A DNA stretch of 61,392 nt, the filler included, from Hausera hauseri (lineage: Eukaryota): the NCBI GenBank assembly GCA_046269625.1. It is 7 parts of 7 records of this genome, joined end to end, with 100 filler letters (N's around TTAATTAATTAA, not from the genome) between each part and the next. Parts side by side here need not be neighbours in the genome. Positions count along the whole stretch, not along the records: positions 12,450 to 33,660 come from JBJURY010066660.1; 6 more parts are not named here. One strand, given 5' to 3'. How positions within the stretch are numbered: position 1 is the stretch's first letter; the number at the start of each line of letters is the position of its first letter. This document shows positions 12,876-51,237 of the stretch, one piece after another. Below the pieces are notes generated by a model. The model saw only the letters and a program-made list of their open reading frames with translations. It made no database searches and was not told where the DNA came from. The position numbers and the translations under genes were made by a program.

Positions 12876-13297
12876 CTGTGGAGGAGAAGCACAAGTCGTC
12901 AGGGGTCTGTTGTGGGGGGTGAAACAAGCTGGAATAAATTGTGGGTGAAATGTGGTGTCACTGTGTGTGTGACATAGCATGTTAATGAAAGCCCTGCCTC
13001 TTACCTAGGGTGAAAAATACTTCTGTGGGGGTGGAAAATGATGGTTACCACAAGTACCATGAAAATGACAACCACCTTTGGGTCCTTCACACAAAACGTG
13101 AGCTTTTCCTTTCTTTATCTGTACTTTCGACACCTGGATCGACTCCTTTTCTTCTGATCCAGAGGAACAGATGAACTTGACCAGCGTACGAATAACGCAG
13201 CTCAGTGCTCTCAGTCATAAAACATTATTTTTTTCTTTGCACATCATAAATTTAACTATTTCTTTTCTAATTTATCACTACAAAATGAATACGTGAA

Positions 13298-16200
13298 ATG
13301 TATTCGGAGGTCATAGAAAATGACTGTAGGCTAAATCAGGAAATCTTAAGAACCAAATTGGCTCTAATCACATCAAATCCAGATATGTTGGTTCCAGCAT
13401 TACCCTTAGCAGAAGGAATGTTTGGAAGAGTGATTGGCGAAACTCTGTTAACCTTCATGTGCCAAAAACTTGAAGTAAATCTAGCTACTGATAGATCAGA
13501 ATTAACAACATGCACATCCGAAATTCCAGTCAAGTTAAACAATGAAATAAGATTGGTAACACCAATAACACGAATTCTTCTACCAAGGGAAACCAAACCC
13601 ACTATTATTCAAAATTGTTCAGGACTAATAAAGCCTAGGATAAAATATAATGATCAAGGTCAATGGGTACAACTACCTGATAGTACTATAGTCCAAACAC
13701 CATTAAAAATAACGATGACATCCTTAAAATACGCTGTCGATATAAACTTATTCCAGGATACAGCGAACGTAGGATTATATGGACCAAACGAGTTAAATAC
13801 ATTCATAAAACAAATCATGTTCCCTATAATGAGGGAACAGGAATTCAATCGAGTAGGGCATGCAGTCCTAATGAGTGGAACATCATCCAGAGACTATAGC
13901 AAAGGATGGCAAAGTGTTCTAGATCCTGATCTACAAGAAAGAACCATAAAAAAGGTTTTTGGTATAATATTTGGACATTTTCAGTGGCTTGGTAATATAG
14001 CCTCCACTATATTAGTTTTTTACTATGGATTCGTAATACTTAAAAATGGATGTATGACATGTGTAGATGCATATTCCATATACGCCATAACTGGATGTAC
14101 CTGGAAAATATTGGCCGCTCTACTAAAACCAATAGCTAGAATTTTTATGGTGCGGCAAGAAAATAAATGGAAACAAGGAATTGAACAACACGTGAACTAC
14201 ATTCCACCTAATCGAAGACGTCATAATGGAAAACCTCCAAAACCACCTAAACGAACAACAAGCACCTTAAGAGGAAGTTTAAATGATTTAAGAAAGAGAG
14301 TCAAAAGTTTTATATCACAGAATCCAGAAAATGTTTACGACAAAGTACAACCAAAAGTGTACAATCCTAAATGGCCGAGTCCGTCACTGTCATATCGTGC
14401 AATGATAAAAGCTAAACAGGATATCTGTACAGCACCTCCCGAATACCAATCGGATATGTCAGGAAGAATGCTGTATTCTCCAAGAAGATCAACATCGCCC
14501 CTTCAGAATATACCATTAATGAATCCAGAATTAACACGAATGTTACAAGAAAAAAGAACCGTTGAGTTACAACAGTCTATATCAAGAAGTATTGATGATA
14601 TATCGATCCATGATCCATATGATCAGCGAGAGAAATACCTAAAGTTGTCGGTATTAAAAACATCGGGTCCTCAATATCCTATGGACCAACTAAAAGAAAT
14701 AAAAGAAATACAAGATGAAACCCATCATCCTAATGTTACTGTTTTTGGTACTAACAATTTTACAATATCAACATTAGATGACGAAGTTTTAGATCCTCGA
14801 TTAAATCAAACAATTCGTCGAAAGGTTGATAAAAGACCAAGAACATTAATTAAAGTAGGAAATATCATGTTAAAAGCTCTGATAGATACAGGAGCAGCAA
14901 TATCCGTAATAAAAGAAAATTTAATTCCAGAAGATAAGAAACATGAGTTAATAATTCCAGAAATCCCGACAATAGGTAGAAGCATATTTGGCACTACTCA
15001 ATCTCCAATAGCTTATTGGGAAACAGGTATAATCATATATGGTGAATACGTTAAAGTTAAATTCAGAGTAATGAAAGAATTAGCCGATGAAGTCGTCATT
15101 GGAATGGATGTATTGTCAGAATTGAAAGACATGGTTATCAATTTAGCAGATGGACAATGCAAACCATATAAAAGCGTAAAATTACCTGAAGGCTATAAAC
15201 CTAATACAGTATGGATGGATTGTGATGAAGATATCCCGGAATTTACAGAAGTAGTCTTGTTCGCAAGTACAGCGATAAATGATGAAGAATCAGACTTTTA
15301 TTTTAAACCCAAACTTCAGCACGAAACTAACTTGATAATGATGCCATCCGTTAGTAAAATAGTTGATAATAAAATTCCAGTTCGAATATTGAACACTACT
15401 GTCAAACCCCTATGGATAAGGAAGAACCAAAGACTTGGCGAAATAGTAGCTTCAGTTACTGAAGCAATAGAAGAAATCCATAAATCAAAGGAATATGTGC
15501 TATTACCCAAATTGAGCGATACATATTTAAATCTCCAACAGTATGCTGAATTAAGTATTAAAGTATTAAAATATGAAGATGTTTTTGCCAAAAATGAAGA
15601 CGAATTAGGAAAACTCAAAGATTATCATATGACTATCAAATTAAAGAAAGATCCAGAAACAGGATGTGAAATCGATCTTGCAGATCAACCACAACCTAAA
15701 TACTATCTACCACCAGAGTCAGTAAGACAGGATTTAGACGAGGAAATTAAAAGACTCCTAAAGTTAAAAATAATCGAAAAATGCAATGCGCCTTGGGTAT
15801 CACCTACCCTAATGGTACCAAAAAAGAACACAACCAAAAAACGATTGTGTATTGATTTTAGACACATTAATAAATACATCATAAGTGATACATATCCATT
15901 ACCCAAGATAAAGGAAATTATTGAAAAATTAAAGGAAAGTGAATTCTATGTTACTATCGATTTCCAATGTGGTTTTTGGCATGTTAAAGTTGCCAAAGAA
16001 GATAGATATAAAACTGCTTTTCGAGTACCACGAGGTATATACCAATTCAAACGAATGCCTTTTGGATTGAAGATAGCTCCATCAGTTTTCCAAAGACTGA
16101 TGACACAAATATTAATAGAGGAAAATAATCCAGGAGTAAAAATGCCTAACTTTGAAGGAGACATGGTTTATATCGATGACTTAGTTCTAACAGGAAAATC

Positions 16201-19200
16201 CTTTGAACAACTACTAGAAAAAGTAGTAGAAAAGCTAGAAAAGTGTAGGAAGACGGGATTAAAGATAAACCCTAAAAAATGTAAATGGTTCAAACAAACC
16301 ATAATTTATTTGGGTTTTAAAATATCTAAGAAAGGCATAGAGACTACAGAAGAAATAATCCAAAAGGTTATCGAATATCCTGAACCTAGAAATAAAAAAG
16401 AATTACAAGGATGGTTAGGATTAGTTGGTTTCTATGCAGACTTCATAGAGAACTATGCACAAGTAAACGAATCTTTATATCAATTACTAAAGAAAAAAGT
16501 AAATTGGGAATGGACTCAAGAAAGGCAAGATGCTTTTGATCATATGAAAAAACTGCTCACGTCAGCACCTATTTTGCAATATCCTGATTATGACTATCCC
16601 TTTATCATTAAAACAGACGCAAGTGGAAAGGGATTAGGATATATATTAGCACAACAATTTGTAAACGAACCTACTGAACATGTAGTAGTATACGGTGCTA
16701 GATCATTAAAACCCGCAGAAACGCGATATCAAGCTACCGAATTAGAACTATTGGCAGTGAAAGAAGCTTTGAGACATTTTTGTTACTATATCTATGGCCG
16801 GAAAGTCATCCTTTATACAGACCATCAGGCCTTATTAAATAAAAAATTCAGTCCAGAAATAACCAAGAGAATGAATAAATGGTTAGCCTATATAAAAGAT
16901 TTTAATATAGAATTCAGGTATAGGCCAGGAAAGCAGAATACTGATGTGGATGCATTATCAAGAATGCCCTTCAATGTATCATCAGTTGAAGAAGTTGATA
17001 ACGAATTCAATGTTATGTTACAGAAATATAGAGAGATAAACACAGCAGCTATTGCCGAAAAACAAGTAAAAGATGTTCAAACCAATTATATAGTAGAATA
17101 TGTAAAAACGAGAAAAATGCCACAACACGATCAAATAACTAAATATCTCAAAAAACATGGAATGCAATTTATATTAGACCAAGAGATATTAAAATATAAT
17201 CAGGATGGACGACTACTGGTAGTAGTACCAAAATGTTTAAGAAATGCAGTTATGTGGCAAGAACATGATGCTAATATGGCGGGTCACCCGTCTAGCAGAA
17301 AAACGAAAAAGAGGATAAAGTTGAAATATTATTGGCCAACCCTAGAAGTAGATGTACAAAACTGGGTAGACGAATGTAAAATGTGCGCTACCATAAAAAA
17401 TAAAGGAGAACGTTTTAAGCCACCATTGAAACTTATCCCTGAACCTAATAGCCCTATGGAATTCTGTGCTATGGATTTCTCGGGGCCATTTCCTCTCACA
17501 CATAATGGAAATAAGTTTATTTTGTTATGTACTGATTATCTCACAAGTTACTCTATCCTAATTCCAACTAAAGATTTACTAGCAATAACAGTGGCCAAAG
17601 AATTTATCAATAATATACTTTGTCAATTTGGAGCACCACGCTATCTACTAACAGATAGAGCCCCAAATTTTAGAAGCCAATTACTAAGAGAAATAACTGA
17701 CATATGTCAAACTAAGCGATTGCTAACCACAGCATATCATCCGCAATGTAATGGAAAAGTAGAACGATTAAATTATACCGTACAGTGTCTCCTGTCAACT
17801 ATGATAGATAAATCTCAGAAGGATTGGGATGAACATTTAAAAGTAGTTCAATTTGCAATAGCGACCACACCGACATCTAGTAAGTATACACCGTTTGAAT
17901 TACTTTATGGTAGAAAACCCCTTTTACCATTAGATATACAGCTCTTGCCAGAAAAGGATATTCCTATCAATACAGATGAAGAAGTTATCCATGCAGGTGT
18001 TGTGCATAGTCTTGCTAATTATTGGATAAGAGCTAAACATGCCATACGTGAATACAAAGCAAGTTATAAAGAACAATATGATAAGAAAAGTAATCCTCAT
18101 AATTTTCAACCGGGTGATAAAGTCATGATACACTATCCCGTTGCCAAACCAGGCAAGTCCTTAAAACTAACTAGAACTGGTAAAGGACCATATCTAGTTG
18201 TAAAAGCAACTCCAGAAAATGTCTTTATAGAAAAAGGTACTGGTAAGAAAACCAGAATAGAGTGTGTATCTGTACAGAGAGTGACTAAAGGACCGAAAGA
18301 ATCTACACCTCAACAAGAGCCTAAATATTCGCTGAGATCATACAAAAAGACTACTATTAAACCAGCTTGTAGCCTGGAAGAATTATTATTTTTAGTAGTA
18401 ATTTTCGGATTAATTTTATCAACAGCAAGTCAAACGTTGGTAACTGAACCAGTGAATGCAAACCTAGACTTAAAAATCAAAATCATTTGGAAATATGAAC
18501 CTTATCTGATAGATTGTCTACTCGAAGGAGAACCTGTATTTTCAAAAATAGGATACTTAATGATCCCACCTAGTAAACAGGATATATGGTTACTTACAAA
18601 AAGATGTAAGGTACCCCTTATGAATGAAGTATGCATACTACAACTTTATTACCTTCCAGTGAATGGTATATTGGCTAAAGAAAATGAATTTGAGCCGATA
18701 GCCAGACAAGTGCATGTAGAAAAGATAGGTCAATCTTTTTTCTTTACTCAAGATAAAGATATTGAACCTAGACTTATAGATAAAGTCGATCTAAAAAGAC
18801 CTACGTTAAATTCAGACGTTGATTTACAAATAACTTATTATTTTCCAAAATTTCTTATGCACACTTCAGGCAAAAAAGCCCTACACTATCATATTCAAAT
18901 GTCAGTTCCACAATTTTTCGAAATTTCAGTTCTAACAACCAGTCCAACCACTAGAATCAAAACTACAGTCGTAATAAATAGAAAAGTCTTGCGGATTAAA
19001 CCACAAGCTCTACAAAAAATACCATCAATTTCAAATGTAATTAAAGATACGTACATCGAGTTTAAAACCCTAAGTCCAGCTACTCAACCGATACAGATAT
19101 CATGCATAGGAAAATATCATATCATGTATTCGGTAATCAAGGAAAAAGAAAGAACTACAAGATGTTCTGAACTTCAACCTGATGAAGAGTATTTAGTAAT

Positions 19201-21844
19201 TTTTACACAAGAAGGTAAACAAACCATGCATAATAAAATTAGGACTCAAACTAAAATATACTCATCTAAAAACATACCATACCAACCAATATATCTAACA
19301 ACGACATATATTGACGATACAATATATGAACCAAATATGCTAAAAACTATAATACCGTTTATAGTAATATTGACATTTTTGCTAATTATCACAACACCAT
19401 TTACCATTCGACAGTTATTGGTATGGAAGAGAAAAAGAAATATAATAAGGAACCAGAGAAAACAATTACAGATCCTCACGAGAAAAATTAACACAAATAA
19501 AAGAACTGCAAGTCATGTGCAGTTAAACCTAATCAATACGAAAATGCAACCTTTAATAACGACAATGTTTGTTATGTGTTGTTTACAAGTAACAAATGTT
19601 TCTATGATGACTGTGGAATTGACAGAATTAAGCATAAGAGAACTAAAGCTAACTACGATCTCTAAAGATGTAGGACGCTTACATGTCCCAACTAGAAATC
19701 TCTTTAACCAACCAAAGATTGAAAGTTCATATGAACAACCAATAAAAATCTATCAACCTACACAAACCGATTTCGTACAAAAACGAAATCAAACATTAAT
19801 ATTTTCTTTTAGAATACAACTCGACCAAATGGCACACTTCCAAATCGATCTGGACGATTCCGACGCCGATTCAGATACCTCAGTACAAACTGTGGTCCCT
19901 AACCCTAAACGAAGGGTTATACCACCCAACCAAGAATTAAGATTTTCAAATCCAACATTTGGACCACCAATGGTACGTGGAATATTACAATATCCACCAC
20001 AATCAATTCCTTCAATTTTACCAAAACAACTAAAATCAGTTGTTGAAATAAGAAGACCACCACCAGATTTTTCAGAAATACCATCAGAAAAGAAGCAGAA
20101 ATACCAGGAATTAAAAACAAGTATGGATAAAAATCTGGTCGAAAGCCGAGAAGAAAAAATCAAGAACAAAACTTGGGAAGAATTATTACAAAAACATATA
20201 GTCCTACACGAAGGACCAAAAAATCGATTCTCTTCCAAGTTCTATAAAACTATTTTGCAACTCTCAGAGCAAAATTCAGATATATTTTTTCCAGAAGCCA
20301 AATTTTTGGATAATCAACTCAAAGAATCAACATATCACAATCGCAGTTTCCGAATAATATCAATGGAAAAACCACACTACAACATTAGCCTCCAACAGTT
20401 GCTAAAAATACAAGACAAATATGACTTCCTTTATATACATATTGCTCAAGGACAAATACAATTTATTTCTGGAAATGATAATTATTCTTCCAGTAACAAG
20501 GACAAATCAATCAAATCTGCCTATGCCACTATGGAAATCTCTCACTTAGCAATGAGAACTCCTATTCATTACAGAATAATTACTACACCGGCAGTATTAG
20601 CATTTGAGATAGTCTCTAAAGAAGATATGCTAATCGGACTGCAACCACCGTTGTTTTACGCGTCACCAGATTTCCAGAATACTAATAATTTTCAACTAAC
20701 AACAGTTGTTAATTATAGGTATTTGGCAGCCTCATTTGCCTATGGAGTAAATGGAAAGCCTATACCAATTGAAGTCACGATCGCAGATGAAAAGAAGTTG
20801 CTGATATATCATGCATTTAGTAATCCTAGAACAAGGATATCCAATACTAATGAGCATCATCATGGAATAACATTAACTCTCATGATGCAAGCAGAAGATG
20901 AAGAAGTCGTTCGTCAGGAAATAATCAAATACCTATTCGGATACACTGTAATATCAGTCAATACAGTGGCTTTATTAAAAGCATTACGGATTCCTATTGA
21001 ATTTCTGCATGGAATAATTGACTTATTGGCTTTATCCAATACAAAGGATCGGTTTCATGAGATAGGACTACAAAAAGTCAATCTCACTCAATTACCTCAA
21101 GCATATGGAATCAAAGAACACTTTCTGAAGCAGGCCGAATCAGTATTACAAATGATCATGCAAATTCATGGGCTGATCACTGAAAATTGTTCAAACGAAA
21201 AATTAGCATTACAATGGACATCGCTACCAAATAATTTAGTTCATAACGGTTCCTTTCAGAAAATTCCTGAAAAATATCATATTGATTATAAACAAGAAGC
21301 CATACAAAACGACACACCAAGTGTGTTTGATCAAATAAAAAAACAAACAGACATGATAATGAAAAAACTCGAGAAGGAACGACAAGAAATACAACATATT
21401 GGAAAAAAGTTATCAATTCTTTTATACGGAGGAAAAATTAGGACAGTGAATGTATTTTATATACAACAGCCAAAATCAAAGATTACAACTAAAAAACAGT
21501 TGTATCCACATCCTGATTTCGGAAAACTTGTGGCCATAATATATAAAAGCTCCGAATATCAAACCTTACATATGGCTGGTATTGGATACCAAGCAGAAAT
21601 CCTCAGGGAATTGGATGAAGAGACCATTACCACTATGCAACCTATTCCAATTCAGATGGACCTAACCCCCATCCCTAAACCAAGGGGGGGAAAACCCTTA
21701 ATGCTCAATAATACCAACAAAGCAAACCTTCGAATGATTCTGTATTCGTCGCCGAATGGATACATATTGGAAAATCTCTATGGTATCCAGACAACAGAAC
21801 AGTTACCAGAAATGCAATCCAGTGACATTGTGATCCAGCTATGA
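13298..21844 (+). CDS. Polyprotein C-terminal 2848 aa: glycoprotein C-half + TM, PR, RT, RNase H, IN, second signal/ectodomain/TM, unknown domain, dead DEDDh exonuclease
   Basis: TM ~13955-14045; PR LIDTGA (DTG 14885); RT YIDD (16169); RH TDAS..ELELLA..YTDH..DALSR; IN HHCC (17264-17386) and D-D35-E core (MDFSGP, LTDRA, KVER); GPY 18185; hydrophobic segments 18374-18433 and 19346-19408. Confidence 0.95.
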   Translation: MYSEVIENDCRLNQEILRTKLALITSNPDMLVPALPLAEGMFGRVIGETLLTFMCQKLEVNLATDRSELTTCTSEIPVKLNNEIRLVTPITRILLPRETKPTIIQNCSGLIKPRIKYNDQGQWVQLPDSTIVQTPLKITMTSLKYAVDINLFQDTANVGLYGPNELNTFIKQIMFPIMREQEFNRVGHAVLMSGTSSRDYSKGWQSVLDPDLQERTIKKVFGIIFGHFQWLGNIASTILVFYYGFVILKNGCMTCVDAYSIYAITGCTWKILAALLKPIARIFMVRQENKWKQGIEQHVNYIPPNRRRHNGKPPKPPKRTTSTLRGSLNDLRKRVKSFISQNPENVYDKVQPKVYNPKWPSPSLSYRAMIKAKQDICTAPPEYQSDMSGRMLYSPRRSTSPLQNIPLMNPELTRMLQEKRTVELQQSISRSIDDISIHDPYDQREKYLKLSVLKTSGPQYPMDQLKEIKEIQDETHHPNVTVFGTNNFTISTLDDEVLDPRLNQTIRRKVDKRPRTLIKVGNIMLKALIDTGAAISVIKENLIPEDKKHELIIPEIPTIGRSIFGTTQSPIAYWETGIIIYGEYVKVKFRVMKELADEVVIGMDVLSELKDMVINLADGQCKPYKSVKLPEGYKPNTVWMDCDEDIPEFTEVVLFASTAINDEESDFYFKPKLQHETNLIMMPSVSKIVDNKIPVRILNTTVKPLWIRKNQRLGEIVASVTEAIEEIHKSKEYVLLPKLSDTYLNLQQYAELSIKVLKYEDVFAKNEDELGKLKDYHMTIKLKKDPETGCEIDLADQPQPKYYLPPESVRQDLDEEIKRLLKLKIIEKCNAPWVSPTLMVPKKNTTKKRLCIDFRHINKYIISDTYPLPKIKEIIEKLKESEFYVTIDFQCGFWHVKVAKEDRYKTAFRVPRGIYQFKRMPFGLKIAPSVFQRLMTQILIEENNPGVKMPNFEGDMVYIDDLVLTGKSFEQLLEKVVEKLEKCRKTGLKINPKKCKWFKQTIIYLGFKISKKGIETTEEIIQKVIEYPEPRNKKELQGWLGLVGFYADFIENYAQVNESLYQLLKKKVNWEWTQERQDAFDHMKKLLTSAPILQYPDYDYPFIIKTDASGKGLGYILAQQFVNEPTEHVVVYGARSLKPAETRYQATELELLAVKEALRHFCYYIYGRKVILYTDHQALLNKKFSPEITKRMNKWLAYIKDFNIEFRYRPGKQNTDVDALSRMPFNVSSVEEVDNEFNVMLQKYREINTAAIAEKQVKDVQTNYIVEYVKTRKMPQHDQITKYLKKHGMQFILDQEILKYNQDGRLLVVVPKCLRNAVMWQEHDANMAGHPSSRKTKKRIKLKYYWPTLEVDVQNWVDECKMCATIKNKGERFKPPLKLIPEPNSPMEFCAMDFSGPFPLTHNGNKFILLCTDYLTSYSILIPTKDLLAITVAKEFINNILCQFGAPRYLLTDRAPNFRSQLLREITDICQTKRLLTTAYHPQCNGKVERLNYTVQCLLSTMIDKSQKDWDEHLKVVQFAIATTPTSSKYTPFELLYGRKPLLPLDIQLLPEKDIPINTDEEVIHAGVVHSLANYWIRAKHAIREYKASYKEQYDKKSNPHNFQPGDKVMIHYPVAKPGKSLKLTRTGKGPYLVVKATPENVFIEKGTGKKTRIECVSVQRVTKGPKESTPQQEPKYSLRSYKKTTIKPACSLEELLFLVVIFGLILSTASQTLVTEPVNANLDLKIKIIWKYEPYLIDCLLEGEPVFSKIGYLMIPPSKQDIWLLTKRCKVPLMNEVCILQLYYLPVNGILAKENEFEPIARQVHVEKIGQSFFFTQDKDIEPRLIDKVDLKRPTLNSDVDLQITYYFPKFLMHTSGKKALHYHIQMSVPQFFEISVLTTSPTTRIKTTVVINRKVLRIKPQALQKIPSISNVIKDTYIEFKTLSPATQPIQISCIGKYHIMYSVIKEKERTTRCSELQPDEEYLVIFTQEGKQTMHNKIRTQTKIYSSKNIPYQPIYLTTTYIDDTIYEPNMLKTIIPFIVILTFLLIITTPFTIRQLLVWKRKRNIIRNQRKQLQILTRKINTNKRTASHVQLNLINTKMQPLITTMFVMCCLQVTNVSMMTVELTELSIRELKLTTISKDVGRLHVPTRNLFNQPKIESSYEQPIKIYQPTQTDFVQKRNQTLIFSFRIQLDQMAHFQIDLDDSDADSDTSVQTVVPNPKRRVIPPNQELRFSNPTFGPPMVRGILQYPPQSIPSILPKQLKSVVEIRRPPPDFSEIPSEKKQKYQELKTSMDKNLVESREEKIKNKTWEELLQKHIVLHEGPKNRFSSKFYKTILQLSEQNSDIFFPEAKFLDNQLKESTYHNRSFRIISMEKPHYNISLQQLLKIQDKYDFLYIHIAQGQIQFISGNDNYSSSNKDKSIKSAYATMEISHLAMRTPIHYRIITTPAVLAFEIVSKEDMLIGLQPPLFYASPDFQNTNNFQLTTVVNYRYLAASFAYGVNGKPIPIEVTIADEKKLLIYHAFSNPRTRISNTNEHHHGITLTLMMQAEDEEVVRQEIIKYLFGYTVISVNTVALLKALRIPIEFLHGIIDLLALSNTKDRFHEIGLQKVNLTQLPQAYGIKEHFLKQAESVLQMIMQIHGLITENCSNEKLALQWTSLPNNLVHNGSFQKIPEKYHIDYKQEAIQNDTPSVFDQIKKQTDMIMKKLEKERQEIQHIGKKLSILLYGGKIRTVNVFYIQQPKSKITTKKQLYPHPDFGKLVAIIYKSSEYQTLHMAGIGYQAEILRELDEETITTMQPIPIQMDLTPIPKPRGGKPLMLNNTNKANLRMILYSSPNGYILENLYGIQTTEQLPEMQSSDIVIQL

Positions 21845-22130
21845 ACTTTGACTCGCTTAATCCTTTTTATTTTTGTGATACCACTTGCTTTTATATTATT
21901 AGTTTTCTCTGTCTTGTGTATTACATTAAACTTTACTCATCCTTACTAACTGAAAATTCTTAAGTGATTACTTTATTCATTTTATCACTTATGCTTCATT
22001 TTATTCAGTATATCATTTTCTTTTTGTATATCAATGTTTATCTTTTACCGTTTTTTGTTCTTTTTAGTAATGATTTGATCCGAAGATTGAATTTTGATTG
22101 ATAAATTTTTCTGAGGGAAAAATTTCTTTC

Positions 22131-22143
22131 GAGGAGGGAGAGA
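22131..22143 (+). promoter_or_regulatory. Polypurine tract
   Basis: GAGGAGGGAGAGA immediately before the TG at the LTR start. Confidence 0.85.
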
Positions 22144-22934
22144 TGTTGTGGAGATGTTAAGTAATTTAGAAGAATTTAAATATTAGAATGTTAAATATTT
22201 AAAATAATACAAAAACAAACTTAAAGATTACACAAAATTATTGATTTTAACAAGACATGATTTTAACAAACACAAATTAACCACGCATTTTATAGTAGAC
22301 CAACAAAGATCTAACATTAGGCTACTCACAGCCTTAATGCAAATTTTATGTTTTTATTTAATATTTTACATTTTTTACAATTACATAAAAGATTAAATTT
22401 AAAAGTTTAAAAGTACCATAACAGGTACTTGAGTTTTAGACTCATATTTGAGTCATTGATACCAAATTCTGTCAAAGGCCCCCAGAAAGTTACTAAACAA
22501 AGTAACTTCTGCGTGATGGTCATTCTAAACTTGGCAAAAACTATAGAAAAGGTCACTAAAACATCATGACCATAATACGTGATCAGCGTGATCACGCCAA
22601 CAAGCATTTTTAGACTATATAAACGAACGATTAGTTACAAACTCGCCATAATTTTTTAAGCCATTAAAAGTTTTCTAAACTATGCAGTGGATGCGTTAGT
22701 TTGGTTGACCAATATTAGGTCTCACTTCAAATCAATATTTTTGATTTTCTTTACCCTCGAAAGGTTTGTAAACCTTTGTGTTTATTCGAGGTAATTAAAT
22801 TCAAAGTTTGGTTCTAGGATCAAATCATTTAATTGGTAATTTTCTTTATTGTTTTTAATTGTTATATTTTAGAACTTTTACTATTTTGTTGTATTTTGAT
22901 AAATACAAAATTTGTTGTATCCGACCTGTTTTTG

Positions 22935-23204: not shown

Positions 23205-23463
23205 CTCGTCTTATTTATTTCTTCTTTGTAATTAAATTAAACTTATCCCAAAAAGTAACGCGCTTGGCAGTCTAGAGCAATTAGACTACGCCATTTCACA
23301 CAAAACTAATTAAAATCAAGTTTAGGAATAATTAATTTCTTTCTTGATTGTGGTAATTTTTCATCTAAACCTTACCAAAACACAAACAGTCATAAAGACA
23401 CTGGTGAAAGGATTTTTAATAATTTTGAAATTCTTTTTTAACCAATACCGAATCCGTAACATT

Positions 23464-23481
23464 TGGCGCCCGAACAGGGAC
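23464..23481 (+). promoter_or_regulatory. Primer binding site complementary to tRNA-Lys(UUU)
   Basis: TGGCGCCCGAACAGGGAC is an 18/18 match to the canonical tRNA-Lys3 PBS, 2 nt after the LTR-terminal CA. Confidence 0.95.
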
Positions 23482-23644
23482 TGTTTGTGTACTGATAGGT
23501 AAGAATTCAACAAGGGTAAAATAAATAAAATATTTTGCTCAGAACAGCTTAAAAATTCCTCCGAGACAGTCTCGTAAATCTAAACAAGAAGCTTTAAAAC
23601 GCTTATCTGTCAATTCCACACAGTCGTTAGATAGACAAAAATCT

Positions 23645-26600
23645 GTGAAAAATCCAAAACCAAAGTTAAAAGATCTAACCATAGACATTGAACCATTAAA
23701 TCTTAATCTTCTAGAAGATAATAATTTACCTAACATGGCACAACAACAACAACAACAACCCCAAATTAATGTAACTGTTTTTGAGTCTTTGAACATACCC
23801 AAATACGACGGAGATCCTGCTGGATTATTAAAATTTTTAAAAACGTATCAACTTTTAAGTGAAGGTCTGGGCATGGATACTCAAGCCTATATCAGACGTA
23901 TGCCGTTATATCTAGACAACGTAGCATTAGATGTTTTCCAGGAACTAACAAGAGATGAAAAGGCTGATTGGGAAAAACTAACAGCTGCGCTTATCAAAAA
24001 GCTAATGCCTACAGTAACCCCCACAGCCCAGTTAGCTATCTTACAGAAACGTTTTCAGTTACCCGGAGAAACAGTAACACAATATTCATACGCGCTTTCT
24101 GAATTGGTAAAAAACTATGCCAACACAGTAAAAACCCAAATTTTAATAAAAAATCCTGAAGCTAATGAAGATCAACTAAGAGTCGAAACTGATATTCATC
24201 TGTTGACCCAATTCCAAAGAGGAATAAGGAAAGATATTCGTAACGATGTCTTAAAAAAGAATTGTTTTACTTTTAGAGAGGCAGTAAGAGAGGCCCAAAA
24301 CCTTGAGGCATATGTTGGAACATTTACAGGTGATCCTAAAAATAATAATAAAAAATTTCCACAAAATAACAATGGAAACCAACAAAATTCTCAACAACAA
24401 AAGCCACAAAATGCTAATAATCAGCAACAATCTGATGCCTCAAAGTCTCAAAGTAATGCTACTTTTCCACAAAGTAAAGGTAATAACACCAATAAAAACC
24501 CCTGGAGTAGCAATAATAATAGTAATAAGAGTTCATGGAATAAAAATAATTCGAACCAATACCAACAGAAAGGTAGAGTGGACTTAAATAGAAATGGAAC
24601 TCCAGTAATATGCAAAAGATGTGGCCAAAACGGTCATACTTCGGTCAATTGTATGACCCCAGTAGAACAGTTACCGGCTGTAAAGCAAGAAAAAGTGTTG
24701 AATCTATCGTCATTACACGAAACACTGGATGACGTAAAAATCAAATTGGACAGATTGCCTCCACAAATAAAGGAGCAGTTTCTTAGTCAAGCCGCTAAAG
24801 AAAGCACCGATGTCGATGATATGCTTAAAAGATATCAAGCAGGAAAGTATAAAAACCCCATATCATCAATGATCGACGAAGAAGATTATACGGACGAATT
24901 TGTCACTAACAGTATAATCCTTACAACCAGAAAAAGAGCTTTAGACAAATTATTTAAAGGGGAAACCTTAACACCAGCGGAAGATTATTTGTTAAAGGCT
25001 ATGCCTGTAGGACCTGAAGTTGAACCTTCACAAATGCAACAAAATGCACCTGCACAATTCAACTCCGATGAAGAAATAGAAATAAATCCATTAGCCTCGC
25101 TAGAGAAAGATGAGGAGAAAGGTGAACAAGTGCAGAAAGAACTTAATACAGATTTAGATGACTCTTCGAGCGATAGTTCCGAAAAACCTCTAGTAATTGC
25201 AGATACAGTTGATAAAGTTTTAAATAAACTGGAAATCGAAACACAAGAAACTGGTCCACCATTAACCGCTTATCAATGGATACCGATACAACAGGCACCT
25301 GAAACTGAAGAGTTTCTCACCCAGGTAGTTCCAAAAGTTATTAAAAAGTCGAAGCAAAAACCACATGCTAAACCAATCGAAACAATGTTGGAAAATGATA
25401 ACGAAGAAAAATATGTTAATAAGAGAATAAAACAAGATGTCAAAAATATACTAAGTGGAGAAATACCAGAGTATGCAAAAGATTTGCCAGAGATGCAGTT
25501 GGTAATTTTATCGAAACATCTGAATGATCCAAAAAAGTTGAAACAATCCAAAGTATTTGATGATCTCTTACAGACATTAAAACAAATACATAAAAATCGT
25601 TACAGTAAAGAATGTACTGAAATTGATGAATTAATAGACGAGGTTTTAGGTAGAAAAAGAGATACTTCAATCTCACAAATACTAACCAAATCACCTTCAG
25701 TAGAAGCAATAGATTTAACTGAGGATTCTCCACAGACAGAAGATACTTTGCCACAATTGCTACAAAAAGCTAGAGATGTGGACATGGAAAAGATTTCCAC
25801 TTTATCCCAACTTGAAAAAATTTCGCAAGGATTGGAAAATCAATTATTCCTTAAGAAACTAAACTATCAAGATAGACAAAATGTTCAAAGCAGCATCCGA
25901 GATTTACAACAAAAGATAGCCGATTTTCAACAAAGGTTACAGCTCATCGAAGAGATATATTTTGATATTGATAGAATAAACCAAATGAAGCTTTCAAGGC
26001 AAGAAAAGATGAAATGGATTCACAGAAAGAATGAAATAGCTCTGGTGTCAGAATATCCTTTTCAAAAAGAGAATGAAAAATGTATTTTTGAAGTTCGACA
26101 AGAGATTGACAAATTCACCAAACCAACTATACAAAAGGTTAACGAACTAAAACTTAGGATCGAAAAATTGAGTCAACTCAACTTACCTAATTTGTCGCAG
26201 GAAAAATTAAATAAACAAATTCTAAAACTAAATAAATTCAAAAATACGTTTTCAGAAGTAGATCGCGCTAAAATAAACGCTATAGAAAGTTTTATTGATA
26301 GAATAGATGATACACCGAAAATCATGAACAAAATTGAGGAGTTAAAGCTAAAACTGAAAGATAAAAGAATTAAATCAGTAGATAAACCCAAAGCCAAAAA
26401 ACATTTCAAAATGATATCAGCCCTTAAACCATTCTTTACAGAATTAGATAAAAAGAAAATTCAAAGGATAGCTGAATGGTATGAAGATGCGACAAGTAGT
26501 CAAAATCAAGATATTGACGACATACCATTAGAAGAACTAGATGACTCAGAAGAAGCCGACACGGCCGAAGAGTTAAATCTAACGGAAGAAGATGTAGAAA

Positions 26601-29600
26601 AAACTCTACAGCAGTATGAAGAGGTGATAACACAACCTCACCAAGATCCTGTGTATCAAGTACAGTATTCACCCGAAAAATTAAGATCCGACATTTCTTT
26701 AACTCAGGTTTGGCCTGAAGTCTTAGATGAGCACCTATTGAATCTCTTTGAGCCAAAGTTTGATTTACAAGAATTAAAGGAAAAAATACCAGAATTAATT
26801 ATATTAGCAGCCGATAATAACAGATATAATGCATTACCAAGAATGTTACTGAAACAATACGGGACTACATTCCGACAAAATCCTCCTTTAGTACTTCCAT
26901 TAAGGGTAATAACTTTAAAGACTAAAGAGATGAAAATAATTATGTCTACTCATGACAATGTATTAGCTACAAAACAAGCTATAGCGGAAAAGATCAAAAT
27001 AAACATAAATTATATGCGAATTATTTTTGCAAATCGAATACTAGATAACGCTTCTTACCTAACAGAAGTAGGTATCCTACCAGGAGAAAATAACGAGATC
27101 CATGTCATAGAAACTAAACAATTACTTAAAGAAGATATAATCAGGCGAATTTCTGATGGACAAGAAATCAAAATAGACGAAGAAATTCTTGGAATAAACG
27201 ATAAAAAATTGTTTGTAAACAAACTCAAACATAATATTCAAACTCAACAAATAACTCCTATAGCTGAATATGATAAGGAAATACATCAGGATATACCTCA
27301 GCAGCTACTACAAGCTCAACAGAAAAAATTAAAAACTAAACAAACAAATGAAGATTTTATAATAAATTCTTTTGTTCAAAAAATGACAACAACTGAAGTC
27401 ATAAAAACGAATAAGAATTACAAGATAATTCGTGATTTAGTAAAGGAGCTATATGACATCATCACTGGTGTGACAACTATTAGTAAAGAAACACCAAATT
27501 GGATAAAAGGCGTAAAAGAATTGGCATTGCAATATCAAAGAGATCAAGTACCTAAACATTTCCGTGAACAAATAGTCAAGAAATTATTACAAACTCCAAC
27601 AAAAAGACGTATCGAAAAAACGTTAGTCTATCTAGTAACGACAATAGAAAGTAAATCTGAAATTAAGGAAATTATTCCAATCATAATCGACTTGATAGAC
27701 TCGGATGTTTACAAGTTCGGAGGATGGATGTCAATATTTGATAAAAACGTATCAACACAAGTGCAGCCGGCAGTACCAAAAATGACGTTAGAAACGTTGC
27801 CTGAGGTTGTAACCCAACTTACAGAATCAATAAAAGAGCAACAAATACAAGAAGAAAAAGAAGGAAAACCAGCATCGTATAATACTAAAAACATAATAAA
27901 TGCAATATTAGCTGTCTTGTTGCTTTTAACAACTATCCTACCAAAAGGAGCCGGTATTACAATATATGATTGCAACAATAATATTAAGCACGGAAAGTAC
28001 TATTCCCTAATGGATTTAGATAAATGCCCAGATGCATCACCTCACCGCCTAACTACTCAAAAGGAACATATGTACGTCTACCAACAAAAACAGAAGTTAC
28101 ACATATCTGGTTATGAATGCTCCTTGCAAATGTCGGAAAAGTTGCAATATTGCGGGATGCATAGTCACATATCAGAAATTAAACCTTTTACTCCATTCAT
28201 GCAGTTAAAAATTACACCGCAGCAATGCTTAGAAGCCATACAATATGGGAGAATTAATTGGGATGGATTTACTATAGATATCCAACCAGGTGAAGTACGA
28301 ACAGTATTACGTTATAAAGAAGGAACAATTGACGCTGCAGGAAATTGTGCAGCTAATGGTGGAGGTAAAGGAAATATACATACACAAAGGTATATTGCCG
28401 AATTAAAAACAGCAAAATTTATTTTTGACACCACCACAGGTACTATGGTAGATGCACCATTTTGCAAATATACAGCAGAATCATGTCGAGTAAGAACCGG
28501 GTTATTAACTTGGACAAATGATAAAAAATCAAGCTGTCATTTGGCACTTCTAAAAGAAGGAATATTTAACGTGACAACCGGTTATCGTTATAGTGATGAA
28601 ATGAATAGAAATCTACCGGATTCAACCGTTAAAGTAATTCCGGAGGTAAATACCCCAACCATATATTGGTCAAGCAATATAACAGAAGGAATGAAATTTA
28701 TCAGGCAGGAAGCCACGGTGATATGTGACACCACTTTATGGAAAACGAATTATGATAATTTTTTCATATCCTCAATGAAAGTTAGAGGAGCAGATAACGA
28801 ATTCTTTGACAAAACTCAACACTTGGATTTACAATCATACATCAGAAATCGCGATGACTATTTATATTTTATCACTACAAAAAGAATACATGAAATGTAT
28901 TCAGAGGTCATAGAAAATGACTGTAGGTTAAATCAGGAGATTTTAAGAACCAAATTGGCTCTAATCACATCAAATCCAGATATGCTGGTCCCAGCATTAC
29001 CCCTAGCTGAAGGAATGTTTGGCAGAGTGATCGGCGAAACTCTGTTAACCTTCATGTGCCAAAAACTTGAAGTAAATTTAGCTACTGATAGATCAGAATT
29101 AACAACATGCACATCTGAAATTCCGGTCAAATTAAATAATGAAATAAGATTGGTAACACCAATAACACGAATTCTTCTACCCAGGGAAACCAAACCCACT
29201 ATTATTCATAATTGTTCAGGACTAATAAAGCCTAGGATAAAATATAATGATCAAGGACAATGGGTACAACTACCCGATAGCACTATAGTCCAAACACCAT
29301 TAAAAATAACGATGACATCCTTAAAATACGCTGTTGATATAAACTTATTCCAGGACACAGCAAACGTAGGACTATATGGACCAAACGAGCTAAATACATT
29401 CATAAAACAAATTATGTTCCCTATAATGAGAGAACAAGAATTCAATCGAGTAGGCCATGCAGTCCTAATGGGTGGAACATCAACCAGAGACTATAGTAAA
29501 GGATGGCAAAGTGTTCTAGATCCTGATCTCCAAGAGAGAACCATAAAAAAGGTTTTTGGTATAATATTTGGACATTTTCAGTGGCTTGGCAATATAGCCT

Positions 29601-32600
29601 CCACTATATTAGTTTTTTATTATGGGTTCGTAATACTTAAAAATGGATGCATGACCTGCGTAGATGCATACTCCATATACGCCATAACTGGGTGTACTTG
29701 GAAAATATTAGCTGCTCTACTAAAACCGATAGCTAGAATTTTTATGGTACGGCAGGAAAATAAATGGAAACAAGGAATTGAACAACATGTGAACTACATT
29801 CCACCAAATCGAAGACGTCATAGTGGAAAATCTCCAAAACCACCTAAACGAACAACAAGTACCCTAAGAGGAAGTTTAAATGATTTAAGAAAGAGAGTCA
29901 AAAGTTTCGTATCACAGAATCCAGAGAATGTCTACGATAAGGTACAACCAAATATGTATAATCCTAAATGGCCGAGTCCATCACTATCATATCGTGCAAT
30001 GATAAAAGCTAAACAGGATATCTGTACTGCACCTCCCGAATACCAATCGGATATGTCAGGAAGAATGTTGTATTCTCCAAGAAGATCAACGTCGCCCCTG
30101 CAGAATATACCACTAATGAATCCAGAATTAACACGGATGATACAGGAAAAAAGAAACGTTGAGTTGCAACAGTCTACATCAAGAGGTATTGATGATATAT
30201 CAATTCATGATCCATATGATCAGCGAGAGAAATACCTAAAGTTATCGGTATTAAAAACCACCGGCCCACAATATCCTACGGATCAACTAAAAGAAATAAA
30301 AGAAATACAAGATGAAACCCATCATCCTAATGTTACTGTTTTTGGTACTAACAACTTTACAATATCAGCATTAGATGACGAAGTTTTAGACCCTCGATTA
30401 AATCAAACAATTCGTCGTAAAATCGATAAAAGGCCAAGAACATTAATTAAAGTAGGAAATATTATGTTGAAAGCTCTGATCGATACGGGAGCAGCAATAT
30501 CCGTTATAAAAGAAAATTTAATTCCAGAAGATAAGAAACATGAGCTAATAATTCCAGAAGTCCCGACAATAGGTAGAAGTATATTTGGCACTACCCAATC
30601 TCCAATAGCTTACTGGGAAACAGGTATAATTATATATGACGAATATGTTAAAGTCAAATTTAGAATAATGAAAGAATTAGCCGATGAAGTCGTCATTGGA
30701 ATGGATGTATTGTCAGAATTGAAGGACATGGTTATCAATTTAGCAGATGGACAATGCAAACCATACAAAAGTGTAAAATTACCCGAAGGTTATAAACCTA
30801 ATACAGTATGGATGGATTGTGATGAAGATATTCCAGAATTTACAGAAGTCGTCTTGTTTGCAAGCACAGCAATAAATGATGAAGAATCGGACTTTTATTT
30901 TGAACCTAAACTTCTACATGAAACTAACTTGATAATGATACCATCCGTTAGTAAAATAGTTGATAATAAAATTCCAATCCGAATGTTGAACACTTCTGTC
31001 AAATCCTTATGGTTAAGAAAGAACCAAAGACTCGGTGAAATAGTAGCTTCAGTCACTGAAGCAATAGAAGAGATTCCTAAATCAAAGGAATATGTGCTAT
31101 TACCTAAACTGAGTGATACGGATTTAAATCTCCAACAGTATGCTGAATTAAGCATTAAATTACTAAAATATGAAGATGTTTTCGCCAAAAATGAAGATGA
31201 TTTAGGGAAACTCAAAGATTATCACATGACTATTAAACTAAAGAAAGATCCAGAAACAGGATGTGAAATCGATCTTGCAGATCAACCACAGCCTAAATAC
31301 TATCTACCACCAGAGTCAGTAAGACAGGATTTAGACGAAGAGATTAAAAGACTTCTAAAGTTAAAAATAATAGAAAAATGTAATGCGCCTTGGGTATCAC
31401 CTACCCTAATGGTACCTAAAAAGAACACAACCAAAAAACGATTGTGTATTGATTTTAGGCACATTAATAAATACATCATAAGTGATACATATCCATTACC
31501 CAAGATAAAGGAAATTATCGAAAAATTAAAGGAAAGTGAATTTTATGTTACTATTGATTTCCAATGTGGTTTCTGGCATGTTAAAGTTGCCAAAGAAGAT
31601 AGATATAAAACTGCTTTTCGAGTACCAAGAGGTATATACCAATTTAAAAGAATGCCATTTGGACTAAAGATAGCTCCATCGGTTTTCCAAAGATTGATGA
31701 CACAAATATTAATAGAAGAAAATAATCCAGGTGTGAAACTGCCCAACTTTGAAGGAGACATGGTTTATATCGATGATTTAGTTTTAACAGGAAAATCTTT
31801 TGAACAGCTACTAGAAAAAGTAGTAGAAAAGCTAGAAAAATGTAGAAAGACAGGATTAAAAATAAACCCTAAAAAATGCAAATGGTTCAAACAAACCATA
31901 ATTTATTTGGGTTTTAAAATATCTAAGAAAGGTATAGAGACCACGGAAGAAATAATTCAAAAAGTTATCGAATATCCTGAACCTAGAAATAAAAAAGAAT
32001 TACAAGGTTGGTTAGGATTAGTTGGTTTCTATGCAGACTTCATAGAGAATTATGCGCAAACAAATGAATCTTTGTATCAATTATTAAAAAAGAATGTAAA
32101 TTGGGAATGGACTCAAGAAAGGCAAGATGCTTTCGATCATATGAAAAAATTGCTCACATCAGCACCCATTTTACAATATCCCGATTATGACTACCCCTTT
32201 ATCATAAAAACAGATGCAAGCGGAAAAGGGCTAGGATATATATTAGCACAACAATTTGTAAACGAACCTACTGAACACGTAGTAGTATACGGCGCTAGAT
32301 CATTAAAGCCTGCTGAAACCCGATATCAAGCTACTGAATTGGAACTGTTGGCAGTAAAAGAAGCTCTAAGACATTTTTATTACTATATCTACGGCCGGAA
32401 AGTCATCCTTTATACAGATCACCAAGCTTTGTTAAATAAAAAATTCAGTCCAGAAATAACCAAGAGAATGAACAAATGGTTAGCCTATATAAAAGACTTT
32501 AATATAGAGTTCAGGTATAGGCCAGGAAAGCAGAATACTGATGTGGATGCATTATCTAGAATGCCCTATAATGTGTCATCGATTGAAGAAGTTGATAACG

Positions 32601-32692
32601 AGTTCAATGTTATGTTACAGAAATATAGAGAGATAAACACAGCAGCTATTGCTGAAAAAGACGTAAAGGATTTTCAAACAAATTTCAAATAA
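23645..32692 (+). CDS. Polyprotein N-terminal 3015 aa: Gag, linker, ubiquitin-like domain, chuvirus-like glycoprotein, PR, RT, RNase H (first ATG at 23735)
   Basis: Capsid-like 'IPKYDGDPAGLLKFL..' (~23795-24320); N/Q-rich tract; CCHC CKRCGQNGHTSVNC (24611-24652); UBL 26900-27112; signal 'IINAILAVLLLLTTILPKGAG' then 'ITIYDC..SLMDLDKCP..YCGMHSH' (27956 onward); TM ~29550-29640; DTGA; YIDD; RNase H. Confidence 0.95.
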   Translation: MKNPKPKLKDLTIDIEPLNLNLLEDNNLPNMAQQQQQQPQINVTVFESLNIPKYDGDPAGLLKFLKTYQLLSEGLGMDTQAYIRRMPLYLDNVALDVFQELTRDEKADWEKLTAALIKKLMPTVTPTAQLAILQKRFQLPGETVTQYSYALSELVKNYANTVKTQILIKNPEANEDQLRVETDIHLLTQFQRGIRKDIRNDVLKKNCFTFREAVREAQNLEAYVGTFTGDPKNNNKKFPQNNNGNQQNSQQQKPQNANNQQQSDASKSQSNATFPQSKGNNTNKNPWSSNNNSNKSSWNKNNSNQYQQKGRVDLNRNGTPVICKRCGQNGHTSVNCMTPVEQLPAVKQEKVLNLSSLHETLDDVKIKLDRLPPQIKEQFLSQAAKESTDVDDMLKRYQAGKYKNPISSMIDEEDYTDEFVTNSIILTTRKRALDKLFKGETLTPAEDYLLKAMPVGPEVEPSQMQQNAPAQFNSDEEIEINPLASLEKDEEKGEQVQKELNTDLDDSSSDSSEKPLVIADTVDKVLNKLEIETQETGPPLTAYQWIPIQQAPETEEFLTQVVPKVIKKSKQKPHAKPIETMLENDNEEKYVNKRIKQDVKNILSGEIPEYAKDLPEMQLVILSKHLNDPKKLKQSKVFDDLLQTLKQIHKNRYSKECTEIDELIDEVLGRKRDTSISQILTKSPSVEAIDLTEDSPQTEDTLPQLLQKARDVDMEKISTLSQLEKISQGLENQLFLKKLNYQDRQNVQSSIRDLQQKIADFQQRLQLIEEIYFDIDRINQMKLSRQEKMKWIHRKNEIALVSEYPFQKENEKCIFEVRQEIDKFTKPTIQKVNELKLRIEKLSQLNLPNLSQEKLNKQILKLNKFKNTFSEVDRAKINAIESFIDRIDDTPKIMNKIEELKLKLKDKRIKSVDKPKAKKHFKMISALKPFFTELDKKKIQRIAEWYEDATSSQNQDIDDIPLEELDDSEEADTAEELNLTEEDVEKTLQQYEEVITQPHQDPVYQVQYSPEKLRSDISLTQVWPEVLDEHLLNLFEPKFDLQELKEKIPELIILAADNNRYNALPRMLLKQYGTTFRQNPPLVLPLRVITLKTKEMKIIMSTHDNVLATKQAIAEKIKININYMRIIFANRILDNASYLTEVGILPGENNEIHVIETKQLLKEDIIRRISDGQEIKIDEEILGINDKKLFVNKLKHNIQTQQITPIAEYDKEIHQDIPQQLLQAQQKKLKTKQTNEDFIINSFVQKMTTTEVIKTNKNYKIIRDLVKELYDIITGVTTISKETPNWIKGVKELALQYQRDQVPKHFREQIVKKLLQTPTKRRIEKTLVYLVTTIESKSEIKEIIPIIIDLIDSDVYKFGGWMSIFDKNVSTQVQPAVPKMTLETLPEVVTQLTESIKEQQIQEEKEGKPASYNTKNIINAILAVLLLLTTILPKGAGITIYDCNNNIKHGKYYSLMDLDKCPDASPHRLTTQKEHMYVYQQKQKLHISGYECSLQMSEKLQYCGMHSHISEIKPFTPFMQLKITPQQCLEAIQYGRINWDGFTIDIQPGEVRTVLRYKEGTIDAAGNCAANGGGKGNIHTQRYIAELKTAKFIFDTTTGTMVDAPFCKYTAESCRVRTGLLTWTNDKKSSCHLALLKEGIFNVTTGYRYSDEMNRNLPDSTVKVIPEVNTPTIYWSSNITEGMKFIRQEATVICDTTLWKTNYDNFFISSMKVRGADNEFFDKTQHLDLQSYIRNRDDYLYFITTKRIHEMYSEVIENDCRLNQEILRTKLALITSNPDMLVPALPLAEGMFGRVIGETLLTFMCQKLEVNLATDRSELTTCTSEIPVKLNNEIRLVTPITRILLPRETKPTIIHNCSGLIKPRIKYNDQGQWVQLPDSTIVQTPLKITMTSLKYAVDINLFQDTANVGLYGPNELNTFIKQIMFPIMREQEFNRVGHAVLMGGTSTRDYSKGWQSVLDPDLQERTIKKVFGIIFGHFQWLGNIASTILVFYYGFVILKNGCMTCVDAYSIYAITGCTWKILAALLKPIARIFMVRQENKWKQGIEQHVNYIPPNRRRHSGKSPKPPKRTTSTLRGSLNDLRKRVKSFVSQNPENVYDKVQPNMYNPKWPSPSLSYRAMIKAKQDICTAPPEYQSDMSGRMLYSPRRSTSPLQNIPLMNPELTRMIQEKRNVELQQSTSRGIDDISIHDPYDQREKYLKLSVLKTTGPQYPTDQLKEIKEIQDETHHPNVTVFGTNNFTISALDDEVLDPRLNQTIRRKIDKRPRTLIKVGNIMLKALIDTGAAISVIKENLIPEDKKHELIIPEVPTIGRSIFGTTQSPIAYWETGIIIYDEYVKVKFRIMKELADEVVIGMDVLSELKDMVINLADGQCKPYKSVKLPEGYKPNTVWMDCDEDIPEFTEVVLFASTAINDEESDFYFEPKLLHETNLIMIPSVSKIVDNKIPIRMLNTSVKSLWLRKNQRLGEIVASVTEAIEEIPKSKEYVLLPKLSDTDLNLQQYAELSIKLLKYEDVFAKNEDDLGKLKDYHMTIKLKKDPETGCEIDLADQPQPKYYLPPESVRQDLDEEIKRLLKLKIIEKCNAPWVSPTLMVPKKNTTKKRLCIDFRHINKYIISDTYPLPKIKEIIEKLKESEFYVTIDFQCGFWHVKVAKEDRYKTAFRVPRGIYQFKRMPFGLKIAPSVFQRLMTQILIEENNPGVKLPNFEGDMVYIDDLVLTGKSFEQLLEKVVEKLEKCRKTGLKINPKKCKWFKQTIIYLGFKISKKGIETTEEIIQKVIEYPEPRNKKELQGWLGLVGFYADFIENYAQTNESLYQLLKKNVNWEWTQERQDAFDHMKKLLTSAPILQYPDYDYPFIIKTDASGKGLGYILAQQFVNEPTEHVVVYGARSLKPAETRYQATELELLAVKEALRHFYYYIYGRKVILYTDHQALLNKKFSPEITKRMNKWLAYIKDFNIEFRYRPGKQNTDVDALSRMPYNVSSIEEVDNEFNVMLQKYREINTAAIAEKDVKDFQTNFK

Positions 32693-44620: not shown

Positions 44621-44669
44621 ATGCGGGGAAAATGGTCACACTGGTGGGCCCGAATCAATGAGAGAAATC

Positions 44670-47017: not shown

Positions 47018-47156
47018 TTCTTCTTGATTACTTCTGACACCAGTTTATGGGTTGTTTGGTTAGCGGATCGAATAGACAGAATGAAGTAAATCAACAATTA
47101 CGTTAAACAACAATAGAGAACGATTTATTTTTTTTTAATTTCAAGAAATCAATTTT

Positions 47157-51000: not shown

Positions 51001-51237
51001 CATCAATTAAATATGTATTAGTTAATTCGCAATAGTATTGGTTACACAAATTGCTTTCAACAAGATAATATAATTATAACATTGTAAAAAATCTAAGTAT
51101 AAAAGTACAAAGTAAGTTGAACTGTGCATATAAATGCGCCACCAGGTCCTATAAATTATATTCGATATTCAGAAGACTTATTATGTTTTCATGATATACT
51201 GTTATTCTTAAATGAACTTGTTTAATTAACCTTTATA

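Follow-up and report, generated by a model that had tools for sequence, protein, structure and literature searches.

The stretch analysed here, called the window, comprises 61,392 nt of the Hausera hauseri assembly GCA_046269625.1, and the locus of interest is a piece of it bounded by N's (positions 12450-33660, GC about 33%) that carries a retroelement of the Ty3/gypsy type in two incomplete copies. By self-BLAST, positions 13264-17087 were found repeated at 28861-32684 (3,824 bp, 93.2% identity, gapless, offset 15,597); the first-pass annotation of this DNA had likewise reported two overlapping copies. Along the piece a 5'-truncated internal region (copy A, 13264..22143, delimited by self-BLAST and flanks; all features lie on the + strand unless marked otherwise) is followed by one long terminal repeat (LTR) and a 3'-truncated internal region (copy B). 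Copy A starts within the envelope glycoprotein (G), while copy B ends ahead of the integrase (IN). The open frame of copy A (13289..21844, 2,851 aa) encodes the C-terminal half of G, protease (PR), reverse transcriptase (RT), RNase H (RH), IN and a cargo region. The open frame of copy B (23525..32692, 3,055 aa) encodes Gag, a CCHC knuckle, a charged spacer, a ubiquitin-like domain (Ubl), G, PR, RT and RH and is cut before IN. At about 33% GC the length of both frames is far above chance expectation. The first ATG of frame B is at 23735; over the 70 basic-rich codons ahead of it (23525-23734) the frame is open as well, and a non-AUG start is possible.

Copies A and B share a single LTR with TG...CA ends (22144..23461, 1,318 bp), located between a polypurine tract (PPT, 22131..22143) and a primer-binding site (PBS, 23464..23481), both assigned from the sequence; the PBS is presumably of the tRNA-Lys type. 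The LTR ends were deduced from these marks because a second LTR for comparison is absent. The combination of LTR, PBS and PPT expected for Ty3/gypsy is thus represented by one LTR-like stretch, and paired LTRs or a target-site duplication were not seen. A comparison of the LTR with Rfam gave 0 matches and a search for tRNA genes found none. Within the LTR an open stretch of 123 codons (22833-23204, +) contains an in-frame 24-bp repeat (3.5 copies) and has no Pfam match. The first-pass annotation had described an element of about 16.9 kb with a single open reading frame (ORF). Each frame is indeed unbroken in its own copy, but the whole unit (15,597 + 1,318 = 16,915 bp) is arithmetic over two truncated copies, which are distinct variants (dS 0.34). 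Calculated the same way, the joined ORF has 4,568 codons from the first ATG, in agreement with the annotation, and 4,638 from stop to stop; the annotated total of 4,598 could not be recovered. A copy of full length was not observed.

The coordinates given for the parts derive from Pfam and hydropathy residue numbers. The Pfam order in the one natural frame of copy B alone is zf-CCHC, ubiquitin, Monjiviricetes_fusion, RVP, RVT_1 and RNase H. Copy A alone runs in one natural frame from the C-terminal half of G through PR, RT, RH and IN into about 1,170 further in-frame aa. The orders gag-G-pol (copy B) and pol-cargo (copy A) are each directly seen, a whole copy is not, and the gag-ENV-pol order in one frame of a Ty3/gypsy element, proposed in the annotation, was confirmed. 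Gag (23735..24655) contains a capsid-like region (Ty3_capsid, E=0.0029) and one CCHC knuckle (zf-CCHC, E=0.0045) and matches the Gag of G-bearing relatives at E~1e-19. A long charged spacer (24722..26824), for which no Pfam match was found, separates it from the Ubl (26903..27106, PF00240, E=1.9e-6). A predicted first internal signal sequence (27884..27961, hydropathy KD19 2.01) opens a complete, glycoprotein B (gB)-like G of the Monjiviricetes type (27905..29836, PF24664, E=4.2e-61), which has a transmembrane segment (TM) at about 29582-29638 and 3 sequons in the ectodomain. This type of G is assigned to class III in the literature; a PDB sequence search with G gave 0 matches. In copy A the C-terminal half of G with the TM lies at 13289..14197 (PF24664, E=5.8e-33). 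PR, a PR-RT spacer, RT and RH were located by Pfam at 30425..32500 in copy B and at 14828..16903 in copy A (RVP, RVT_1, RT_RNaseH). The spacer is homologous to the equivalent slot in relatives (E=3.5e-12) and has no Pfam match at E<=1; a dUTPase identity is not shown. IN (17225..18298) is composed of the H2C2 zinc domain (Integrase_H2C2, E=5.7e-17), the core (rve, E=0.0015) and a C-terminal part and is 34-38% identical to IN of the relatives. By its sequence the element is assigned to Ty3/gypsy (Metaviridae), as judged from the PR-RT-RH-IN order, the gypsy-type domains and the gypsy-type best pol matches. The arrangement of Belpaoviridae with a chuvirus-like G (BEL/Pao pol, env after pol) was not found; RT_RNaseH and Integrase_H2C2 are of the gypsy type and G stands before PR.

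Over their 1,258 shared codons, copies A and B differ by 214 synonymous and 39 non-synonymous changes (dS 0.338, dN 0.013, dN/dS 0.039), indicating purifying selection. The first 300 of these codons lie in G and show 45 synonymous versus 4 non-synonymous changes, therefore G was selected in frame with pol. As it is under selection and its position recurs in distant relatives, G is not a recent nested insertion, which the annotation had named as a possible objection. The assembly was compared with contigs of two public data sets from two studies (X1 and X2, stretch shares 0.85 and 0.41), either of which may be related to the source of the window; contig depth in them is not a copy number and gaps in contigs prove nothing. 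None of the public data sets listed as containing the stretch is RNA. The X1 and X2 contigs cover 30 of 30 bins of the stretch, and an X2 contig (23112-23535) runs from the LTR across the PBS into the beginning of frame B. Contigs of both X1 and X2 match copy B to 32684 and then continue into sequence that looks, on visual inspection, like copy A beyond 17087; no X1 or X2 piece bridges 32684 into the flank of the window, and no listed contig spans the whole stretch. Between a deep X1 contig (17170-17625) and copy A there are 23 mismatches in 456 letters, and the listed contigs from 18815 on show 0 differences. Copy A looks like a mosaic of variants, so the tandem A-LTR-B may be an assembly path. 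The gene order is independent of whether this tandem is real.

Relatives were collected with G by HMMER from 1.84 billion representatives. The best of 826 G-like proteins were long chains at 30-35% identity, ahead of stand-alone glycoproteins of ~650 aa at 20-27%. A word-index search yielded 0 of 2,435 candidates when G was queried as part of the long protein and 1 of 7,898 when G was queried alone. When 14 long G matches, chosen by length from the top 22, were scanned, 11 carried an aspartic protease behind G on one chain, and 5 continued to RT; P0012 has a Bcl-2 domain before G and one chain has a weak ubiquitin match between CCHC and G. In the pol search, multi-pol gene models from a pseudoscorpion ranked highest; among 11 other pol matches, hand-picked for scanning, 9 carry G before PR-RT. 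The proteins P0209 (4,057 aa) and P0217 (3,700 aa) combine CCHC, Ubl, G, PR, RT, RH, IN and a tail in one chain, the Ubl of P0209 being ubiquitin/SUMO-like and followed, between G and PR, by ankyrin repeats. P0157 (4,844 aa) reaches from G through IN into a long tail, and two relatives gave weak Glycoprotein_B matches. Comparing 12 pieces of the window with 174 long proteins by phmmer, only Gag was linked at E<=0.01. As side observations, P0157, P0009, P0010, P0226 and P0228 contain several aspartic-protease copies per chain, some after IN (up to 7 Pfam stretches in P0157), and P0008 (HBK71150.1) is a G-pol polyprotein annotated as a protein of a Flavobacteriaceae metagenome-assembled genome, likely animal DNA that contaminated a bacterial bin.

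Three trees were calculated. The G tree (FastTree, 41 rows, made up of the window, all 18 polyprotein sequences and 22 of the 92 stand-alone ones) nests the window G in a polyprotein clade (96) and there in a 13-row subclade (95) with P0209. The RT-RH-IN tree (FastTree, 33 rows; P0222 dropped, P0208 labelled as G-group though its chain is without G) places the window outside the core clade, in a set of 13 G-group rows (98). The third, an IQ-TREE quick tree, was restricted to RT-RH; of 124 rows, 69 with more than one RT match were excluded and 55 remained, P0236 being erroneously unlabelled. In this tree the fork of the window stays open on a branch of 2.47.

The annotation had not recognised the architecture as a described one and had named a match to a described family as the outcome that would overturn this. 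Such matches exist, from 2019 and 2026; as the in-frame gag-env-pol layout has been published before, the element does not represent a new type of retroelement. The four publications concerned were compared in excerpts. Burro and GYPSM1 of planarians (2019; PMC6431247) have a single ORF of ~4,900-5,100 aa with env in frame between gag and pol. In common with the window element are Gag with CCHC, a ubiquitin/SUMO-like domain between Gag and env, and an env that is placed in frame ahead of pol and resembles glycoproteins of the mononegavirus type; the slot between PR and RT is filled in both, in Burro by a dUTPase-like domain (PMC6431247). A single giant ORF (4,873-5,140 aa in Burro) would be shared as well if the 4,568 codons obtained here by arithmetic over two truncated copies stand in one copy. 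Marks of this description were also found in the relatives, P0209 showing the layout with ankyrin and P0012 with Bcl-2. Burro exceeds 30 kb with an internal region of up to 25 kb, whereas the window element, at about 17 kb, does not reach the size of Burro sensu stricto; Burro has two or three CCHC knuckles versus one here (PMC6431247). The excerpted Burro description, its figure being outside the comparison, names no post-IN membrane protein with a fibronectin type III (FN3) module and no exonuclease-like tail (PMC6431247).

GAG-ENV-POL elements with an ENV of the gB type of herpes simplex virus (HSV) were described in 2026 from Nematoda, Bryozoa and Platyhelminthes; they are not monophyletic, and supplementary file 1 contains 9 flatworm elements, 6 of them from Schmidtea mediterranea (PMC13524379). 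The trait that unites these HSV/gB-type errantiviruses, a gB-type/chuvirus-like ENV between gag and a Ty3/gypsy pol, was found in the window element with the PF24664 match given above. They are described as three ORFs versus one frame here, a comparison by description only, and the words 'polyprotein', 'fibronectin', 'exonuclease' and 'ubiquitin' have 0 occurrences in the text (PMC13524379). The hookworm Atlas virus (Belpaoviridae) also has a single uninterrupted polyprotein (2,828 aa) comprising Gag, Pol and Env and derives two envelope proteins from one precursor, as predicted for the window element; unlike the latter it is BEL/Pao, with env last and a class II Gn-Gc (PMC9094657). Like Juno and Vesta of bdelloid rotifers, the window element has a DEDD-family 3'-5' exonuclease-like region 3' of pol (PMC5408684). 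Theirs is a separate ORF3 of the DEDDy type with the catalytic residues kept (PMC5408684), whereas the domain in the window is fused in frame, DEDDh/ISG20-like and has lost the acidic residues of the first motif. The less familiar parts of the element are predicted to be a second membrane protein with an FN3-like module and a likely dead nuclease, both fused behind IN.

The region behind IN has a characteristic hydropathy spacing of a hydrophobic segment, about 300 aa, a second segment and a basic stretch. It contains a predicted second internal signal sequence (18356..18433, KD19 2.16), a predicted second ectodomain (18428..19330, iE 0.00096 with a profile of 10 relatives) with an FN3-like module at about 19025-19213, and a predicted TM anchor followed by the basic stretch (19337..19423, KD19 2.44; 1 K/R before, 8 after). 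A third, uncharged hydrophobic stretch follows at 19553..19609 (KD19 1.59, 0 charged residues). Two hydrophobic segments 3' of IN are present in 11 of 14 relatives, and 2 of the other 3 chains end soon after IN. With the profile of the 10 relatives, which includes no window sequence, the top 3 of 596 six-frame pieces were the post-IN regions of the three window elements, namely the element itself and two decayed relatives (iE 0.0004, 0.001 and 0.02). The AlphaFold2 (AF2) model of the second ectodomain is confident only for residues 200-262 (pLDDT 80-91). Foldseek with this part listed FN3 rows at the top (E 0.0035 and weaker), a VIA structure match to FN3 reached Z 9.8 (rmsd 2.2, 79 aligned), and weak profile matches pointed to contactin-1 and PTPRF. 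For the second ectodomain there was no Pfam match and no ESM Atlas match, and the viral fold library search gave no match at E<=0.001. The modelled FN3 likeness is taken as a shared fold and shows no function. A description of an FN3 membrane protein or of signal-peptidase processing in such elements was not found in the literature searched, which did not include the Burro figure.

Further downstream a domain shared with the two decayed window relatives (20162..20710, by sequence comparison) gave only 11 unrelated weak rows and no convincing match when its profile was run against PDB. It is followed by a DEDDh (ISG20/REXO-like) exonuclease-like domain (20702..21250). The tail region is shared with the two decayed relatives at 24% identity (E=2e-13), and in a PDB search with the tail profile the top 4 of 7 rows were the DEDDh nucleases ISG20, ISG20L2, PolC exonuclease and SDN1 (E 0.004-0.05). 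In a short and weak profile alignment to SDN1 none of the three window elements retains the acidic D/E residues of the first motif, which mark active ISG20/REXO enzymes, and judged by sequence the domain is likely inactive. The tail has no Pfam match, its AF2 model (mean pLDDT 35) was not used, and the tail profile gave 0 matches among the 174 long proteins; this nuclease-like tail was seen only in the three window elements. A DEDDh-like tail fused behind an integrase was not described in the literature searched. Of the two decayed relatives, one (55662-61392, -) retains IN at 40-54% identity, a signal sequence, an ectodomain, the shared domain and the nuclease-like region and ends in a RING finger (Pfam E=6e-4). 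The other (1-4746, -) is distributed over several broken frames with IN (45% identical), a signal sequence, an FN3-like piece, a TM and the nuclease-like region.

Taken together, we consider it likely that the locus represents a Ty3/gypsy element in which a single frame holds gag, a glycoprotein of viral type and pol, probably a divergent branch of the Burro/GYPSM1-like elements, whose polyprotein is predicted to be threaded through the endoplasmic reticulum (ER) and to yield a fusogen plus an FN3-like attachment protein. Translation would start in the cytosol with Gag, spacer and Ubl. The internal signal sequence would then direct G into the lumen, with Gag tethered to the membrane until it is cut, and the G anchor would return the chain to the cytosol, where PR may release RT-RH and IN; to work, pol must finish cytosolic. 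The second signal sequence after IN would export the FN3-like ectodomain, anchored by the second TM. This amounts to four predicted ER membrane crossings, with cuts presumably made by signal peptidase and by the element's own protease. The nuclease-like tail domain may bind rather than cut RNA, and particles would bud at secretory membranes and spread between host cells. The ER-threaded polyprotein had been suggested by the first-pass annotation, and the hydropathy does fit an alternation of cytosol and lumen, but the cytosolic side of the tail is uncertain.

We are aware that a number of observations weigh against this interpretation. One frame implies a 1:1 ratio of Gag, Env and Pol, an unusual proportion in enveloped particles if neither splicing nor degradation were to correct it. 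The third hydrophobic stretch in the cargo is what renders the side of the tail uncertain, and the G tail has a second, moderately hydrophobic segment, so the topology of the polyprotein is not fixed. The second ectodomain has no N-sequon and its model falls below pLDDT 50 at 252 of 318 residues; all Foldseek E-values for FN3 are >0.001, and the FN3 profile match is weak and biased (bias 15.7). Concerning the Burro affiliation, the LTR of 1.3 kb is unlike Burro, and Bcl-2, BIR, MATH and ankyrin gave no Pfam match in the window element, the Burro calls being partly HHpred-based. The pol is at most 38% identical to relatives and forms a long branch, both supporting trees are FastTree only, and the IQ-TREE fork is open. 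Moreover, the relatives are Burro-like by layout only, with no named Burro sequence in the comparison.

The same element might do without a free infectious particle, with G and the FN3 protein serving cell-to-cell transfer by contact or soma/germ-line fusion, or only tethering the replication complex to membranes. The 1:1 stoichiometry speaks for this, and the transmission mechanism of gB-type elements is called unknown in the literature (PMC13524379). G is, however, of full length with signal, sequons and TM and under purifying selection, and contact transfer would still require most of the same parts; we regard this explanation as rather improbable. Even less probable is a gag-ENV-pol lineage of separate origin that acquired the layout of Burro by convergence. 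The reported lack of monophyly of gag-ENV-pol elements (PMC13524379), the long branch with odd composition and open fork in the IQ-TREE quick tree, and an LTR size and cargo unlike Burro would agree with convergence, but for Gag, G and pol alike the best-scoring matches or the tree neighbours come from one and the same protein set, which also has the Ubl slot and the post-IN FN3 cassette.

That the long frame itself is an artefact of misassembly or of a nested G insertion is very improbable. Both copies do end abruptly, copy A is mosaic-like, and contigs spanning the stretch or leading from 32684 into the flank are missing; nevertheless, the order is found within single natural frames and recurs in proteins of 31-38% identity from other data sets, and the contigs of both X1 and X2 pass from copy B into sequence that by eye resembles copy A. 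A weaker form, in which only the tandem A-LTR-B is the assembler's path through a collapsed repeat and the gene order is untouched, has a chance only somewhat short of even.

Starting from the Burro/GYPSM1-like reading, a wider proposal can be made tentatively: Burro-like elements may be enveloped invertebrate retroviruses with two-protein entry from one polyprotein, in which a gB-like fusogen encoded ahead of pol is paired with a host-like FN3 protein for attachment encoded behind IN. To this, the present lineage would add an ISG20-like nuclease that is dead but binds RNA and shields it from the RNA defences of the host. Within the proposal, the best remaining lead is that the FN3 protein acts as the attachment partner to the gB-type fusogen, although we rate it as possible rather than probable. 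The means by which retroelement envelopes of the gB type achieve entry in the absence of partner proteins like those of herpesviruses are described as an open question (PMC13524379). If the proposal is true, the FN3 protein would supply the missing receptor-binding partner of these envelopes; the conserved FN3-like membrane protein in the same polyprotein is in any case a specific candidate that can be tested. The element further shows that this design extends across pol sequences with only 38% identity and that cargo continues to be added at its end, the likely dead nuclease here and the RING finger in the neighbour.

Some further features were noted elsewhere in the window. On the - strand, 43196-47044 carries a cadherin match (E=2e-12) and Cys-rich pieces of EGF-like appearance; they immediately precede a gag-like frame, which looks like the capture of part of a host gene beside another retroelement. 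An intron-free frame of 539 aa with a PAM2 motif (E=6e-6) lies at 35220-36839 (-), and a tandem repeat with a period of 77 and 3.7 copies occupies 51237-51523.

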